From an uncultured Gammaproteobacteria bacterium (GTDB lineage: Bacteria > Pseudomonadota > Gammaproteobacteria > Pseudomonadales > UBA5518), in NCBI GenBank assembly GCA_903938575.1, contig CAJADV010000085.1:9491-73490 (forward strand): 64,000 nucleotides of DNA, given 5' to 3'. Of this stretch, positions 5,855-17,008 are shown piece after piece (the stretch's first letter is position 1; every line of letters begins with the position of its first letter). Under the pieces are notes generated by a model. That model searched no databases and was not told where the DNA came from. It worked only from the letters and a program-made list of their open reading frames with translations. Made by a program: the position numbers and the translations under genes.

Positions 5855-8800
5855 TCAGGCCCGCGGAAACTGCACCAGCCGGGCCGTAGGTGAACGTCGC
5901 AGGAACAGCCGCTCGATGTCCGCCGCCGGTACGGCCTTGCTGAGCAGATAGCCCTGCAAGTAATGGCAATGCATGTCTTTCAGGAACTGGCGTTGCATGG
6001 TGGTCTCCACGCCCTCGGCAATCACCTCGACTTCCAGCGCCTGCGCCAGCGCGATGATCGTTCGCACGATGTCTGCATCGATACGGTTGCTCATCACGTC
6101 GGAGATGAATGCCCGGTCGATCTTGATGTAGTCGAGCGGGAAGCGCTTCAGGTAGCTCAATGAGGAGTAACCGGTACCGAAGTCATCGATAGCGAGCCGT
6201 GTGCCCATCGCTTTCAGATCGCGCAGCATCCCGATCATCTCGTCGGGCCGCTCCATGATCGCGCTTTCGGTTATTTCGAACTCGATGTACTCGGGCGCGA
6301 TGCCGGCATCGGCGATCACCTCGCGGAAGTCCTCGACCAGTCCCGGGTTGGACAGCTGCCGCGCCGAGAGATTGATCGCGACCCGGGGCGTCTCGAAGCC
6401 GCGCGCCGTCCAGTCCGCCACCTGCGTGCAGACCGTGCACAGCACCCAGCGGCCGATCTCGCTGATCAGCCCGGTGCGCTCGGCGAGCTCGATGAACTCC
6501 GCTGGCGGCACCAGTCCGCGGGTCGGGTGCTGCCAGCGGATCAAGGCCTCGTAGCCCGATACGATGCCCGTGCGCAGGTCCTCCTGCGGCTGGTAGTAGA
6601 CCACCAGTTCCTCGCGGTCGATGGCGTTGCGCAGTTCGTTCTCGGTCTCGAGTCGCGCGAGGCTCTCGGATTCCAGCCGTGCTTCGTAGAACTCCCAGGA
6701 TTTCTTCCCGGTCTTGGCGTGGTACATCGCCATGTCGGCCGAGCGCAGCAGCGTGCCCGCGTCCCTGCCGTGCTCGGGATACACGGCTATGCCCATCGAG
6801 CTGCCGAGCAGCATCTCGCGACCGAGCAGCACGAAGGGACGGTTCACGTGATCGTGGATTTTCTCGGCGATGTTGCGGATCATTTCGTAGGAGCGCACGT
6901 TGTCCAGCACGATGCAGAACTCGTCGCCCCCGAAGCGGCCCACGAAGTCACCCTTGCGCACGCTGTTGACGAGGCGCTCGGCAACGTACTTCAACAACAG
7001 ATCGCCGGCCTCATGGCCCAGCGTGTCGTTCACCAGCTTGAAGTCGTCCAGGTCGAGGAACAGCAGGGCGAACTGTTTGTCGCTCCGCACGGCCTCGGCG
7101 AGAAGCGTCTCCATGTGCTCGTTGAACTTGGTGCGGTTCGGGCGCCCGGTGAGCGAATCGACATAGGCCAGTTGGTGCACGCGAGCCTCGGCGCTGCGTG
7201 CGGCGAGCAGGTGCTCGATGCGGCGTCGCAGCACCGAGTAGTTGATCGGCTTGGCGATGTAGTCGGTGGCGCCGGCGCTGAAGGCCTTGTCCACCGCGCC
7301 GTCGTCGTTCAGGCCCGTGACCAGCAGCAGCGGTATCCCGGCGCAGCCGGGAAGGGCGCGAATCAGTGCGCAGGCGGTGAATCCGTCCATTATCGGCATC
7401 ACGCCGTCCATCACCACCAGATCGGGCGCCGCCTGGCGGCAGATTTCCACGGCCTGCTGTCCATTGCTCGCCTCGGCTACCTCATAGCCCTCGCCCAACA
7501 GCGTCTCGCGCAGCGCAAAGCGCGATGAGCGGTCGTCATCGACCACCAGTATCCGCGACTGCCGCGCGTCCGCTGCCTTCAGTTCATCGCCGGGCGCCGG
7601 GCGGGAGGTGCTGCTGCCTTCCAGCACGTGCCGCACCAGATTGGCCTCGTAGACCAGCGCCGAAACGAGATTCTCGCAGGCCGAGCGCACGCCGCTGCGG
7701 GCTTCCTGCTCGAGTGCGAGCGCGCGCTGGGCGAGACGGTTTGCGCCAACGTTGCCGGCCGCGCCTTTCAGGGTGTGCGCCACGCGCGTGATCCCGGCCA
7801 TGTCGTGGATTTCGGCGGCGCCGCGGAGTTCGTCGATGTAACCGGGCAGATCCTCCAGAAACAGTCCTACCATCCGGTCCGCAGCAGGGCCGATCTGCTG
7901 GCGCAGATCGTCGAGGAATGCCTTGTCCACCACGGTGTTCGAGTTGCTGCGCGGGGCAAGCGGCGCCGTCGATGCGGGCGCTGCCTCCTCGGGAGTAAGC
8001 CAGCGCCCGAGCGCTTCGCGCAGGACACTGAGCTTGATCGGCTTGGACAGGTAATCGTTCATGCCGGCCGACTGGCACTGCTCCATCGCACTTTTCTGCA
8101 CGTTCGCGGTCATGGCCACCACGGGCACGGCCGAGAAGGCGGCGTTCATCTCGCGGATCCGGCGTGTCGCCTCGAAGCCGTCCATGCGCGGCATGTGGCA
8201 GTCCATCAGGATGAGGTCGAAACGCTGTTCGCGCAGGCGCTCGAGGCATTCGAGTCCGTCGCTCGCGAGTACCGCTTCGCAGCCGAGGCGCTCCAGCATG
8301 CCGATGGCCACCTCCTGGTTGGCGCGGTTGTCCTCGACCACGAGCACGCGGTTTCCCGTGAATGTCTCGCGTGAGGACGGCGCCGGGAAGCGGTTCACGG
8401 CGCGCGCGGCAGGCTGCTCGGCGAGCAGGCTCCGGATGCAGTCGTGCAGCATCCCGCGGCGCAGCGGCTTGGCCAGAACCTGCGCGATGCGGATTCCCGG
8501 CAGCCACACGCCGTCCGGGCGCGGCCGCACGCCGAGCCGGACCACGTGACGTGCCCCAGCGGCGAGCGCGGCGGCGATCTGCTGGGCCTCGTTGCCGATC
8601 ATGCCCTCGTCGATGATGGCGATGTCGAAGCGCTCCTGGCCGGCGGCGTGACCGAGCGCGGCCAGCGTCGACTCGAGCGTGCCGGTGGCGGTGAGGCGCA
8701 CGCGCTCGCCGAGCAGCATGCTCGCCGCCGAACGGCGTACCAGCGGGTTGTCGTCGCAGAGCAGCACCGAGGCTACTTGCGCCAGCGGCAAGCTCGAGCG

Positions 8801-15160: not shown

Positions 15161-17008
15161 TCACATGGCCTGCAGTGCCTGGATCCGCCGCCCGATCGGA
15201 GGTACCTCGCTGGCATCGATGCGGATATCCAGAAGGGTGGGGCTCTTCTGCATGCAGATTGCGGGGATGTTGAGGTTCAACAGGTCCTGTGGTGTCTGGA
15301 TAAGGTAGCCGCGGATTCCCATGGCCTCGGCCATGCGGCGGAAATCGACCTGCGGCAGCTCCGCGCCGATCCGCTCCCCACCGCCCAGGATCTGGCCGTG
15401 CGCGACCATGCCGAGCCTGGCGTCGTTCAGCACGATGAACACCACCGGCAGGCCGAGCTGTTGGGCAACGGTGATTTCCTGGCCACTCATCAACATGCTG
15501 CCGTCGCCGGTGATGCACACCACCGGGTCGCCCGGGCGCGCGAGCGCCGTGCCCACGGCATTGCCTATCGCCCAGCCCATGGGGGCAAACTCGAAGCCTG
15601 CCTGGAAGAGCCCGCCGCAGTTACTGCGGCGGTCGCGCTCGCCGCGCTCGCCGCGTTCGCGGTGGCGGCGATCGAGCAGGCGGCGGTCGAAGGGGTGCAG
15701 GTAGTGTGTGCTCCACGCAAAGCTGTTGCCGGCATCGGCGAGGTAGCGGGTGCTGGGCGGGAAGAGCTGCGTCAGCTTGGTCATCAGCCACTGCGGCTTG
15801 ACGGGGCTGGAGGCATCGAGGCACTTGGCGAAGTCCGTCACCTCGAAGGGCAGCAGTGATTGTCCGCTGCTCACGTGTTCATCAGTGTCCTGGCGCTCGA
15901 TGCTGCCAAGGTGGCGCCCGGCCTTGCCGAGCTCGATGATCACGCTCTCGAAGATGGTGTCGATGGATCCGCGCACGTGCAGGCGCGCCATCGGCGAGCG
16001 GGTGAGGTTGCCTTCGTTGGAGTCCACGTGGACCAGCTGGCTGTTCAGCAGGCCCTCGCTGTCCCAGTTATTGCTGCTCCACTCGCTCAACAGGTTGCCG
16101 ATGGTGATCATCAGATCGACCTCGGGGTCCCGCAGGGTGCGCTCGGCGCTGACATGGCCAGCAAAGGAGACCACACCGTCGTAGGTGGGGTGGAAGGGGC
16201 TGATCAGTCCCTTGCCGTCAGGCGTGGTGACGACGCGGGCACCGACCATCATGGCGGCACGCAGGATGAGCCCTGCCGCATCCTGGCAGCCGCCGCCCAG
16301 CACGAACACCGGTTTCTTGGCCGCAAGCAGCAGCTCGACCATGGTGGCCAGCGCGCTTTCGTCCTTCCACGCCGGGCGCGCGAGCAGTGAAGTGAGGTTG
16401 TAGGCAGGCCCCGAGGTCGACACGGCAGAGCGCAGCACGTCTAGCGGTACGCTGACATGCGCCGGCCCGCTTGCGTTGAAGGCGGTCATGATGGCGGAGG
16501 TCAGCTTGTGCTCGAGCTGATCGATGTGGCTCACCAGGGTGTTGTAGTGGGTGCAGTGCTGGAACATGCCCACGGTGTTCACCGCGGTGTCGCTGGATTC
16601 CTGGAAGGCCTTGCGACCGAAGTGGCTGAGCGAAGTCTGCGGGGTGATGACCAGCATGGGGATCTGGTTCTCGTAGGCTGAGGCCACGCCGGTGATCAGA
16701 TTGGTGGCTCCGGGGCCGGTGGTGCTGCAGCACACCCCCAGGCGACCGGTGTTGCGGGCATAGCCCTCGGCCATGAAGGCGGCGCCCGTCTCGTGGCGAG
16801 CCACCACGGCCCGCACCGAGCCGCGGCGCTGGCTGCGGGCACGCGCGTTGTACAGGGGCTCGATGGCCCCGCCCGGGATGCCAAAGACGTACTCCACCCC
16901 CAGCTGTTCCAGGTAGCCGAGAATCAGGTCCCCGCCCTCGTAAATCCGGGGCGAGGCTGAAGGCTCCGCGCTGACAGCGGGGTAAAGCGTGCGCACTTGA
17001 GCAACCAC
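15161..17008 (-). CDS. Thiamine-diphosphate-dependent enzyme of the acetolactate-synthase / 2-hydroxyacyl-CoA-lyase superfamily, with an Arg/Glu-rich insertion
   Basis: N-terminal LGVEYVFGIPGG...HETGAAFMAEGYAR...GPGATNL and C-terminal ITGDGSMLM...LNDARLGMV TPP motifs. Extra segment DRRLLDRRHRERGERGERDRRSNCGG lies just before the TPP-binding loop. The stop is 7 nt from the TonB-receptor ATG. Confidence 0.85.
   Translation of the reverse strand: MVAQVRTLYPAVSAEPSASPRIYEGGDLILGYLEQLGVEYVFGIPGGAIEPLYNARARSQRRGSVRAVVARHETGAAFMAEGYARNTGRLGVCCSTTGPGATNLITGVASAYENQIPMLVITPQTSLSHFGRKAFQESSDTAVNTVGMFQHCTHYNTLVSHIDQLEHKLTSAIMTAFNASGPAHVSVPLDVLRSAVSTSGPAYNLTSLLARPAWKDESALATMVELLLAAKKPVFVLGGGCQDAAGLILRAAMMVGARVVTTPDGKGLISPFHPTYDGVVSFAGHVSAERTLRDPEVDLMITIGNLLSEWSSNNWDSEGLLNSQLVHVDSNEGNLTRSPMARLHVRGSIDTIFESVIIELGKAGRHLGSIERQDTDEHVSSGQSLLPFEVTDFAKCLDASSPVKPQWLMTKLTQLFPPSTRYLADAGNSFAWSTHYLHPFDRRLLDRRHRERGERGERDRRSNCGGLFQAGFEFAPMGWAIGNAVGTALARPGDPVVCITGDGSMLMSGQEITVAQQLGLPVVFIVLNDARLGMVAHGQILGGGERIGAELPQVDFRRMAEAMGIRGYLIQTPQDLLNLNIPAICMQKSPTLLDIRIDASEVPPIGRRIQALQAM

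Follow-up and report, generated by a model that had tools for sequence, protein, structure and literature searches.

Six minus-strand genes packed almost without spacing, encoding cytoplasmic enzyme-like proteins, an outer-membrane receptor, a periplasmic binding protein and a membrane sensor, raise the question of whether such a mixture forms one functional unit and what that unit might do. The genes lie at positions 5855-17008 of a 64,000-nucleotide stretch, referred to here as the window, of contig CAJADV010000085.1 from an uncultured Gammaproteobacteria bacterium (assembly GCA_903938575.1). A first-pass annotation of the window had suggested that the receptor admits a ligand, that the binding protein presents it to the sensor, and that the enzymes make, consume or sense the same compound. 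We find that the six-gene module is real and recurs in many bacterial lineages. The earlier interpretation was partly supported: gene layout and domain content held, and the block proved to recur, whereas the labels given to the enzymes had to be corrected. The module, a predicted enzyme complex and a predicted sensing pair are each much better supported than the full circuit that would join them. In that circuit the enzymes would make a small molecule, the receptor would re-import it, and the periplasmic binding protein and sensor would set cyclic di-GMP (c-di-GMP), a reading that we offer tentatively and that falls somewhat short of probable.

Gene order and spacing were established from the open reading frame (ORF) listing, translation and the junctions themselves. 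In the direction of transcription, and all on the minus strand, the block encodes a thiamine diphosphate (ThDP) enzyme (15161-17008, 615 aa) with a GTG start preceded by a GGAAGGAG ribosome-binding site, a TonB-dependent receptor (12979-15153, 724 aa), two citrate-synthase-like proteins termed CSA (12146-12964, 272 aa) and CSB (11325-12149, 274 aa), a secreted PF04392-like binding protein (10387-11328, 313 aa) and a membrane sensor (5855-10357, 1500 aa). The ThDP stop codon and the receptor ATG are 7 nt apart (TGA-GTACCGC-ATG), and 14 nt separate the receptor stop from the CSA ATG. ATGA overlaps join CSA to CSB (12146-12149) and CSB to the binding-protein gene (11325-11328), and a 29-nt spacer precedes the sensor ATG at 10357. 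All six genes and five junctions reproduced the coordinates and spacings first reported. Identical proteins on metagenome contigs, called independently, had the same products and the same lengths (615, 724, 272, 274, 313 and 1500 aa).

To place the block in a wider context, CSA served as the anchor. Judged by profile search, CSA is a member of a small family: 1.84 billion representatives yielded 164 matches at E<=1e-30, and a scan of one genome per species found CSA relatives in 295 genomes. The best 80 of the 295 were examined as loci (labelled L), in which all ORFs were translated and then searched with profiles of the window's proteins. Component counts were restricted to 49 species-level loci with at least 8 kb on either side of the CSA homologue. 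CSB and a TonB-dependent receptor were each present in 48 of these 49 loci, any sensor in 44, the ThDP enzyme in 43, GGDEF/EAL in 34 and a PF04392-type binding protein in 33; all components occurred together in 32.

Gene order was not conserved with this content. L013 carries the six genes in the same order as the window between entirely different flanks, and L015, L017, L099 (the complete genome of Methylomonas sp. MED-D) and L100 (Sulfuricella) hold the same parts in other orders and orientations. Order was reshuffled across Gammaproteobacteria, Gallionellaceae, Desulfobulbaceae, Desulfuromonadales and Nitrospirota. A search anchored on the binding protein returned to the cluster even at 37-40% identity (Methylomonas, Sulfuricella). 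Because orders are shuffled, flanks differ and an independent anchor finds the same cluster, phylogenetic inertia cannot account for the recurrence. The genes were clearly neither confined to this genome nor routinely separated, either of which the first-pass annotation had named as a sign against a functional unit.

Gammaproteobacterial carriers among the best 80 were Cellvibrionaceae, Teredinibacter waterburyi, Neptuniibacter and Chromatiales; the others were Gallionellaceae, Sideroxydans, Thiobacillus, Desulfobulbaceae including cable bacteria, Desulfuromonadales and Nitrospirota. In the source records these proteins are annotated as 'hypothetical' or 'citrate synthase family protein'. The most window-like locus, L019 (CAMAXE010000002.1), keeps the gene order and is 93% identical over CSA. 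It is titled 'MAG: Klebsiella pneumoniae', which looks like a taxonomic mis-assignment; the other close relatives are uncultured Gammaproteobacteria or Pseudomonadales, mostly from environmental metagenomes.

What the enzymes might do was examined through their domains, nearest relatives and active-site residues. The ThDP enzyme scored above the Pfam cut-offs for TPP_enzyme_N, M and C (132.8, 72.6 and 96.5 bits), and these matches place it in the acetolactate-synthase/pyruvate-oxidase (AHAS/POX) superfamily. An orthologue alignment showed the HETGA catalytic Glu and the GDGS...LND ThDP/Mg motif to be intact. No NCBIfam equivalog cut-off was reached, the best model being acolac_lg (279.5 against 538.35), and scores were too low for the biosynthetic acetolactate synthases (TIGR00118 and related). 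The second-best model was a ScyA-related carboligase family and not a primary-metabolism AHAS equivalog. An AHAS small-subunit (ilvH/ilvN-like) gene was found in none of the clusters. The nearest solved chains were BbmA (8X3X, E 9e-81) and CsmA (8X3Z), with AHAS only after these and 2-hydroxyacyl-CoA lyases among the Protein Data Bank (PDB) relatives. By eye, from the alignment, the N-terminal domain is about 45% identical to that of BbmA. Literature queries on BbmA, CsmA and their PDB codes returned no function.

Just ahead of the C-terminal ThDP-binding domain lies an Arg-rich insertion, PFDRRLLDRRHRERGERGERDRRS (aa ~437-463; window 15620-15700), in a region that does not align with BbmA. 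Most cluster orthologues share it, L015 lacks it and L018 lacks the greater part of it; it could be a docking segment for the citrate-synthase-like partners. The window enzyme therefore shares the three-domain ThDP architecture, catalytic Glu and GDG...N motif of AHAS/ScyA-type carboligases, but it differs from them in carrying this insertion, lacking a small subunit, scoring below all equivalog cut-offs and being partnered with proteins of another fold.

That fold was resolved by structure prediction. AlphaFold2 models of CSA (predicted local distance difference test score, pLDDT, 87) and CSB (pLDDT 82) both had 6HXP, a citryl-CoA lyase (CCL), as top Foldseek match, with template-modelling scores of 0.69-0.72 and 0.68-0.72, respectively. 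Both models were closest to the Hydrogenobacter CCL and the CCL module of ATP-citrate lyase. Profile searches against the PDB agreed (CSA to 6HXP, E 5e-27; CSB to citryl-CoA lyase, E 1e-17). Family models were not reached: CSA scored 21.7 bits on PF00285 against a cut-off of 27, CSB had no Pfam match, and the best NCBIfam citryl-CoA lyase scores were 67.3 against 212 for CSA and 52.3 against 193 for CSB. The two proteins are distant paralogues (25% identity, BLASTP E 2e-07).

The canonical catalytic pair of this fold is the His of PG(Y/I)GH and the Asp of NVDG (His320/Asp375 in pig citrate synthase, His975/Asp1026 in human ACLY). In CSA, PGYGH is changed to PGFG[S/T/R] and NVDG to x-P-G, and the Asp position held Pro, Thr or Val in 25/25 sequences. 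In CSB, G[YF]x-R stands in place of PGxGH, and the Asp position holds Leu, Ala, Ile or Met. Other positions are strictly kept: NPGPRHxxTRA, PGFG, D169, W191 and W206 are invariant in the CSA family, and KGGW, PDPRIWCN, G[YF]xRPxxxGDER, N[LM]xGY and ACY are conserved in CSB. The citrate-synthase fold first proposed for these proteins is thus correct, and more precisely a CCL fold. The accompanying label of C-C-bond enzymes is not established, because both proteins have lost the catalytic His and Asp; with the failed family cut-offs, these replacements also kept us from filing them as citryl-CoA lyases.

Gene arrangement ties the three proteins together. CSB adjoins CSA in 75 of 79 loci, the stop codon of one gene mostly overlapping the start codon of the next, and the two are fused in single chains in P0210, P0294 and P0295. 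The ThDP enzyme is fused to CSA in P0306, and ThDP and CSA genes overlap stop to start in L018, L031, L076 and L100. Because of these natural fusions, together with the adjacency and overlaps, the ThDP enzyme, CSA and CSB probably form one complex. Known CCLs are homo-oligomers. CSA and CSB share with citryl-CoA lyase, the CCL module of ATP-citrate lyase (6HXP, 6HXO) and citrate synthase a fold and detectable homology; they differ in their replaced catalytic residues, in falling below family cut-offs, and in being two diverged, paired paralogues that are sometimes fused to each other or to the ThDP enzyme. We found no characterised precedent for the ThDP-CCL-fold complex that the fusions predict. 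If the model holds, it would assign a role to 'citrate synthase family' and 'hypothetical' proteins with a CCL fold and a different active site.

Outgroup CSA-like homologues occur without a CSB partner in L073 (4327-10807) and also in L074 and L080. The outgroup CSA-like gene lies downstream of genes for a FadB-like enzyme, an acyl-CoA synthetase and a 4HBT thioesterase, which hints at acyl-CoA as the ancestral substrate class of the CSA family.

The binding protein and sensor were then compared across loci. The binding protein has a signal peptide, MTRLAIIALASALCLIPFRAVQA. It scored 23.8 bits on PF04392 in the window, against a cut-off of 25.9; orthologues reached 42.8 (L026) and 81.7 (L030), and many homologues carry a precomputed PF04392 annotation. 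Matches to the PDB were weak and confined to single-domain proteins under the deposited name 'ABC-type uncharacterized transport system periplasmic component-like protein'. Known PF04392 ligands are aromatic amino acids (PMC10443332). No ATP-binding cassette (ABC) permease or ATPase gene was seen beside the binding-protein gene in the window or the called neighbourhoods, and none recurred among clustered neighbours, in agreement with its first description as an orphan.

The Pfam order of the sensor is HAMP-HisKA-HATPase_c-REC-Hpt-REC-GGDEF-EAL, and on our own reading a candidate degenerate receiver-like region lies between HATPase_c and REC. Pfam and NCBIfam checks upheld the domains assigned earlier to all six proteins, including the phosphorelay, GGDEF and EAL of this one. 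Transmembrane helices at aa ~16-37 and 181-205 bound a periplasmic domain of aa ~38-180, so that the loop predicted at about aa 37-182 was correctly placed. Kinase motifs are intact (H292 in SHELRTP; N, G1 and G2 boxes), as are Hpt H861, the RKGD I-site-x5-GGDEF at 1134-1147 (GGDEF 1143), EALIR at 1270, DDFGTG at 1391 and EGVE at 1448. By its motifs the sensor qualifies as a GGDEF-EAL protein of c-di-GMP turnover. Its architecture is that of an unorthodox hybrid kinase of the BarA/GacS type, with His292 and His861 the phosphorylatable residues checked. It shares this architecture without being a BarA orthologue, since the equivalog cut-off was not reached (517 against 890).

The binding-protein gene was directly followed by a sensor gene in 37 of 47 cases, and the pair persists at 35-40% identity. 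Sensor aa 9-256 align end to end with the input region (transmembrane helix, periplasmic domain, transmembrane helix, HAMP) of sensors from nine loci that cover every sensor architecture; several of the inputs from other architectures score as sCache_4 (PF09984). The output varies. The window clade, Methylomonas and a small number of others have the fused 1500-aa chain, and many lineages have a split form with a ~530-aa kinase and a ~830-aa REC-PAS-GGDEF-EAL protein. Gallionellaceae have a HAMP-PAS-GGDEF-EAL protein of ~815 aa, Desulfobulbaceae kinase-only relays plus an extra PhnD-like binding protein, and Chromatiales a YfiR-like (DUF4154) protein with a CHASE8-HAMP-PAS-GGDEF-EAL sensor. Since the histidine kinase and the REC-(PAS)-GGDEF-EAL protein are separate in most other lineages, the fusion identifies the cognate partners of the split systems. 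The 'megasensor' of the first-pass annotation was right in architecture and is better described as a lineage-specific fusion of these two regulators.

A conserved input, a variable output and an adjacent binding-protein gene together support the co-sensing idea. The 37/47 adjacency and the conserved input argue that the binding protein presents a ligand to the sensor, through a putative physical contact. The analogy drawn with NspS-MbaA holds as a functional resemblance; because the binding-protein families differ, it does not extend to membership.

Several loci carry further changes to this pair. In L015 a second PF04392-like gene and a PAS-kinase-REC gene lie on the opposite strand right beside the cluster (17103-20744), and the pair has therefore been duplicated and diversified within that locus. 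Compared with L011, the sensor gene of the window's close relative L012 (12624-16071; GCA_002423785.1) is interrupted, leaving a 402-aa GGDEF-EAL remnant; opposite-strand ORFs of 944 and 101 aa with no recorded Pfam match occupy the N-terminal two-thirds, and could be a mobile or defence element inserted in the gene.

The receptor has a signal peptide, a Plug domain at aa 51-157 (87.4 bits) and a beta-barrel at aa 282-685 (171 bits); on these Pfam matches it is a TonB-dependent receptor. The plug starts at aa 51 with no match to the STN signalling extension, and no sigma or anti-sigma genes lie near the window operon; a TonB-dependent transducer would be expected to have both. Searched with a profile made from the receptors of the clusters, cluster orthologues scored 630-1240 bits. 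Among the neighbours of CSA-CSB the receptor gene lies closest, and stop and start codons overlap in L013, L048, L055 and L057. A substrate assignment was attempted and rejected: no substrate-specific NCBIfam model came near its cut-off, and similarity to the closest solved receptors (CirA, PirA and BtuB) lay chiefly over the plug. In L005 (7812-9986) and L014 (7786-10001) the receptor gene is split into plug-only and barrel-only ORFs on contigs that otherwise match intact versions, which points to a population variant (frameshift or pseudogene) or to a misassembly.

Whether the enzymes make or consume a compound was judged from genes inserted in variant clusters. These encode a short-chain dehydrogenase/reductase (SDR), a sulfotransferase, a PapA/condensation-like acyltransferase, or a cytochrome P450 with or without a fatty-acid desaturase. 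In the Nitrospirota locus L031 a small multidrug exporter and a BTAD/SARP-like activator replace the receptor and sensor. No inner-membrane importer was conserved in the ~80 loci. Lineage-specific tailoring, export and pathway-activator genes are a biosynthetic-cluster signature, and the earlier 'make, consume or sense' can for this reason be narrowed, by inference, toward 'make'. The second place of a ScyA-related carboligase model for the ThDP enzyme, ahead of any primary-metabolism AHAS equivalog, leans the same way.

Together these observations suggest how the circuit might operate. One promoter in the divergent intergenic region would drive the six genes. The ThDP enzyme and both CCL-fold proteins would assemble in the cytoplasm, an association suggested by the natural fusions, with CSA and CSB as a putative heteromer. 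The complex might build a small molecule from a 2-oxo-acid and probably acyl-CoA precursors at a non-canonical active site, and in other lineages tailoring enzymes (SDR, sulfotransferase, acyltransferase, or P450 plus desaturase) would modify it. The molecule would exit the cell by an unlinked route and, at low external concentration and possibly complexed with metal, would be pumped back across the outer membrane by the receptor. It would stop in the periplasm, because the cluster encodes no inner-membrane transporter. There the PF04392-type protein, whose genetic linkage to the sensor is observed, would capture it and dock on the sCache_4-like periplasmic domain. The signal would pass through HAMP to kinase His292, REC, Hpt His861 and the second REC, which would switch the GGDEF/EAL domains, present with their motifs, and change c-di-GMP. 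The net effect would be a make, re-import and sense circuit that informs the biofilm/motility switch of cell density, diffusion or the availability of metal.

A number of findings weigh against this circuit. Co-transcription of the six genes is predicted from their spacing only. The ThDP match is missing in 6 of the 49 full-flank loci and the PF04392-type protein in 16, and in some loci a YfiR-like (DUF4154) protein replaces the latter. In L102 the sensing pair is present but the enzymes and receptor are not, so that the pair is not exclusive to the pathway. With catalytic His and Asp missing from both, CSA and CSB are possibly non-catalytic and the proposed chemistry is speculative; should the BbmA/CsmA clusters prove homologous, the chemistry may already be known. 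No exporter was conserved across the loci, sulfotransferases and P450s occur in catabolic and detoxification loci too, and import of a foreign nutrient or xenosiderophore would suit the receptor just as well.

This last point leads to acquisition or catabolism, the main rival to the make-and-sense circuit and in our view a distinct, if unlikely, possibility. Here the receptor would import an exogenous nutrient or xenobiotic, the binding protein and sensor would report it and adjust c-di-GMP, and the compound would enter the cytoplasm through an unlinked transporter to be converted or cleaved by the ThDP/CCL-fold complex with the SDR or other enzymes. TonB-dependent receptors often share operons with cytoplasmic enzymes that process their cargo, and the tight, overlapping placement of the receptor gene beside CSA-CSB fits that pattern. 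The ThDP and CCL-fold families both include C-C lyases, 2-hydroxyacyl-CoA lyases are among the PDB relatives of the ThDP enzyme, and the outgroup CSA-like gene of L073 sits beside an acyl-CoA synthetase, a FadB-like enzyme and a thioesterase. Such a route is harder to reconcile with ~80 loci that conserve no inner-membrane importer and with the loss of the CCL catalytic residues. The 3'-phosphoadenosine-5'-phosphosulfate (PAPS)-type sulfotransferase and the PapA-like acyltransferase are anabolic, and the L031 variant, which has no receptor, encodes an exporter together with a SARP-like activator. The product might instead be a metallophore, a carboxylate or hydroxy-acid chelator made by the enzymes, re-imported as its metal complex by the receptor and sensed by its occupancy, so that metal status is passed to c-di-GMP. 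Biosynthesis genes beside a receptor gene are a hallmark of siderophore loci, the nearest solved relatives of the receptor are catecholate-siderophore and B12 receptors, and a citrate-synthase-related fold suggests polycarboxylate chemistry. Carriers also appear rich in iron/sulfur-cycling or electroactive taxa (Gallionella, Sideroxydans, Thiobacillus, cable bacteria, Desulfuromonadales and Tenderia), an apparent enrichment given without statistics and offset by Cellvibrionaceae, Neptuniibacter and Methylomonas, which carry the cluster too. The cluster has no gene for an inner-membrane metal-chelate transporter, a reductase or a Fur-type regulator (the promoter was not searched for a Fur box), and the known ligands of PF04392 proteins are aromatic amino acids, not metal chelates (PMC10443332). 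We consider a metallophore decidedly unlikely.

The two remaining explanations concern parts of the cluster. CSA and CSB might be non-catalytic, regulating or scaffolding the ThDP enzyme as the AHAS small subunit does, or sensing a cytoplasmic metabolite, with the ThDP enzyme alone catalytic. The missing catalytic His and Asp, the lack of an adjacent AHAS small-subunit gene and the ThDP-CSA fusion would all fit, but strongly conserved polar motifs (NPGPRHxxTRA; PDPRIWCN; GDER; ACY) are typical of a retained, re-tooled site, and we find this reading improbable; it does not conflict with the overall circuit. That unrelated metabolic and signalling units merely came to lie side by side, by chance or history, might be argued from L102, where the sensing pair stands alone, and from L018 and L031, where the enzymes occur without it. 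Co-occurrence across phyla despite shuffled order and different flanks makes such an accident very hard to credit. Returning to the make-and-sense circuit, its boldest form would be a widespread new class of self-produced signal or metallophore, made by a new type of enzyme complex in which a ThDP carboligase is bound to a re-tooled CCL-fold heterodimer, detected only once a dedicated TonB receptor has re-imported it at the cost of energy, and read out in the periplasm through c-di-GMP, which we regard as doubtful.

The module was also set against known systems. NspS-MbaA of Vibrio cholerae, LuxP-LuxQ, TorT-TorS and AioX-AioS each have a periplasmic binding protein that passes its signal to a membrane sensor and does not feed a transporter. 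The cluster resembles them in three respects: the gene for an orphan secreted binding protein immediately precedes that of a membrane sensor with a periplasmic domain, genes for an ABC permease or ATPase are absent, and the output is GGDEF-EAL as in MbaA or a hybrid kinase as in LuxQ and TorS. NspS is PotD-like and TorT, LuxP and AioX come from other families, whereas the binding protein here is PF04392-like and the sensor input sCache_4-like, with contact between them inferred; the cluster also brings in its own TonB-dependent receptor and a set of three enzyme-like proteins. The phosphorelay (HisKA-HATPase-REC-Hpt) ending on a receiver that controls c-di-GMP recalls RpfC/RpfG with the diffusible signal factor synthase RpfF, PdeK/PdeR of Xanthomonas, and BarA/GacS, and the split form of kinase plus REC-PAS-GGDEF-EAL protein has an architecture identical to PdeK/PdeR. 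The rpf cluster places signal-making enzyme genes beside the sensor, as here, although the enzymes are unrelated to RpfF. Unlike these systems, the window clade fuses everything in one 1500-aa chain and would receive its input through a binding protein and TonB receptor.

Siderophore and cell-surface-signalling loci such as FecA/FecR/FecI likewise encode a receptor with biosynthetic or processing enzymes and tie import to signalling. The cluster differs in having no STN, no anti-sigma/extracytoplasmic function sigma pair and no inner-membrane uptake system, with a binding protein and c-di-GMP sensor instead. YfiBNR, in which YfiR is the periplasmic regulator of the cyclase YfiN, is approached by the Chromatiales variant with its YfiR-like protein beside the CHASE8-containing sensor. 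The lipoprotein YfiB was not seen there, the YfiR-like protein goes with the CSA-CSB-receptor core, and the window locus falls outside this comparison.

Every domain family in the module is known, and binding-protein-dependent sensing, kinase/c-di-GMP circuits and receptor-biosynthesis linkage all have precedents. A literature search of incomplete coverage found no description of the whole conserved combination, of a TonB receptor feeding a periplasmic c-di-GMP sensor without an inner-membrane transporter, or of a ThDP-enzyme/CCL-fold complex with a re-tooled active site. The cluster may represent an unrecognised way to make, take up and sense a small molecule. In its boldest form the proposal would amount to 'TonB-gated quorum or diffusion sensing', practised by environmental Proteobacteria, Desulfobacterota and Nitrospirota. 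If the make-and-sense model holds, outer-membrane active transport would serve sensing and not nutrition. Iron oxidisers, cable bacteria, methanotrophs, polysaccharide degraders and shipworm symbionts would then be among the carriers of a new small-molecule signalling or uptake circuit. Methylomonas sp. MED-D, Neptuniibacter marinus and Teredinibacter waterburyi Bs02 are cultured carriers in which these questions can be addressed directly; in Methylomonas sp. MED-D the cluster spans ~659.6-678.6 kb of CP189965.1.

The borders and control region of the block were examined in the window. Upstream lie a divergent EthD-like gene (17196-17894, plus strand) and then an esterase gene; downstream is a convergent SDR gene (4983-5756, plus strand). 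The EthD-like and esterase genes were considered as cluster members and rejected, being absent from L013 and all distant loci, and are treated as neighbours because they are conserved only in the window's own clade. A promoter-like element, TTAGCCTTCTATACT (17038-17052, minus strand), with a TATACT -10-like hexamer at 17043-17038, lies ~30 nt upstream of the ThDP start within the divergent intergenic region. When the sequences upstream of the operon in six related loci were aligned, TTAG.C.TCTATACT was invariant and the flanking sequence varied; this motif is plausibly the -10 region of the operon. A scan for the sigma-70 consensus missed the conserved TATACT element. Within the block a sequence scan found no minus-strand terminator-like site and two weak promoter-like sites, at chance level (2 against 1.2 expected in shuffled sequence), and internal promoters or terminators that split the operon were rejected. 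A riboswitch or leader RNA ahead of the operon was rejected likewise: Rfam at the gathering threshold matched one tRNA only in the whole window, and a permissive scan of 16900-17300 matched nothing.

The window SDR (adh_short_C2, 207 bits), convergent with the sensor gene, is a possible but uncertain seventh cluster member. An SDR adjoins the CS-like pair in many loci, directly after CSB in ~17, whereas in Methylomonas and L082 it separates the ThDP gene from CSA. Nine post-CSB SDRs form a group across phyla (Gallionellaceae, Desulfurivibrionaceae, Chromatiales and Cellvibrionaceae), in which those of L036, L039, L051, L056, L092, L046, L079 and L057 accompany the L047 reference (L047:11600-12370) at 55-93% identity to it. 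The CS-like proteins encoded next to these SDRs are only ~40% identical to those of the window, and the SDR similarity points to strong constraint, or else to part of the cluster having spread horizontally in recent times. Orthology of the window SDR with the cluster-associated SDRs was not established (~31-33% identity only), and an SDR at the window's position is kept only in the window's own clade.

Two further features of the window were noted. Across 22000-27000, just past a tRNA-Ser (CGA) gene (22842-22931), GC content falls from ~0.65 to 0.57-0.58, the usual signature of a small integrated island. Downstream of the SDR, at 2676-4818, are a GntR/FCD regulator and a Rieske-type ring-hydroxylating oxygenase (PF00355, PF11723), followed on some related contigs by a Fer2/FAD reductase, which in the window may lie beyond the annotated stretch, and on L001 by a PIN-domain gene instead. 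The arrangement is reminiscent of a vanillate-demethylase unit and apparently has no connection with the operon.

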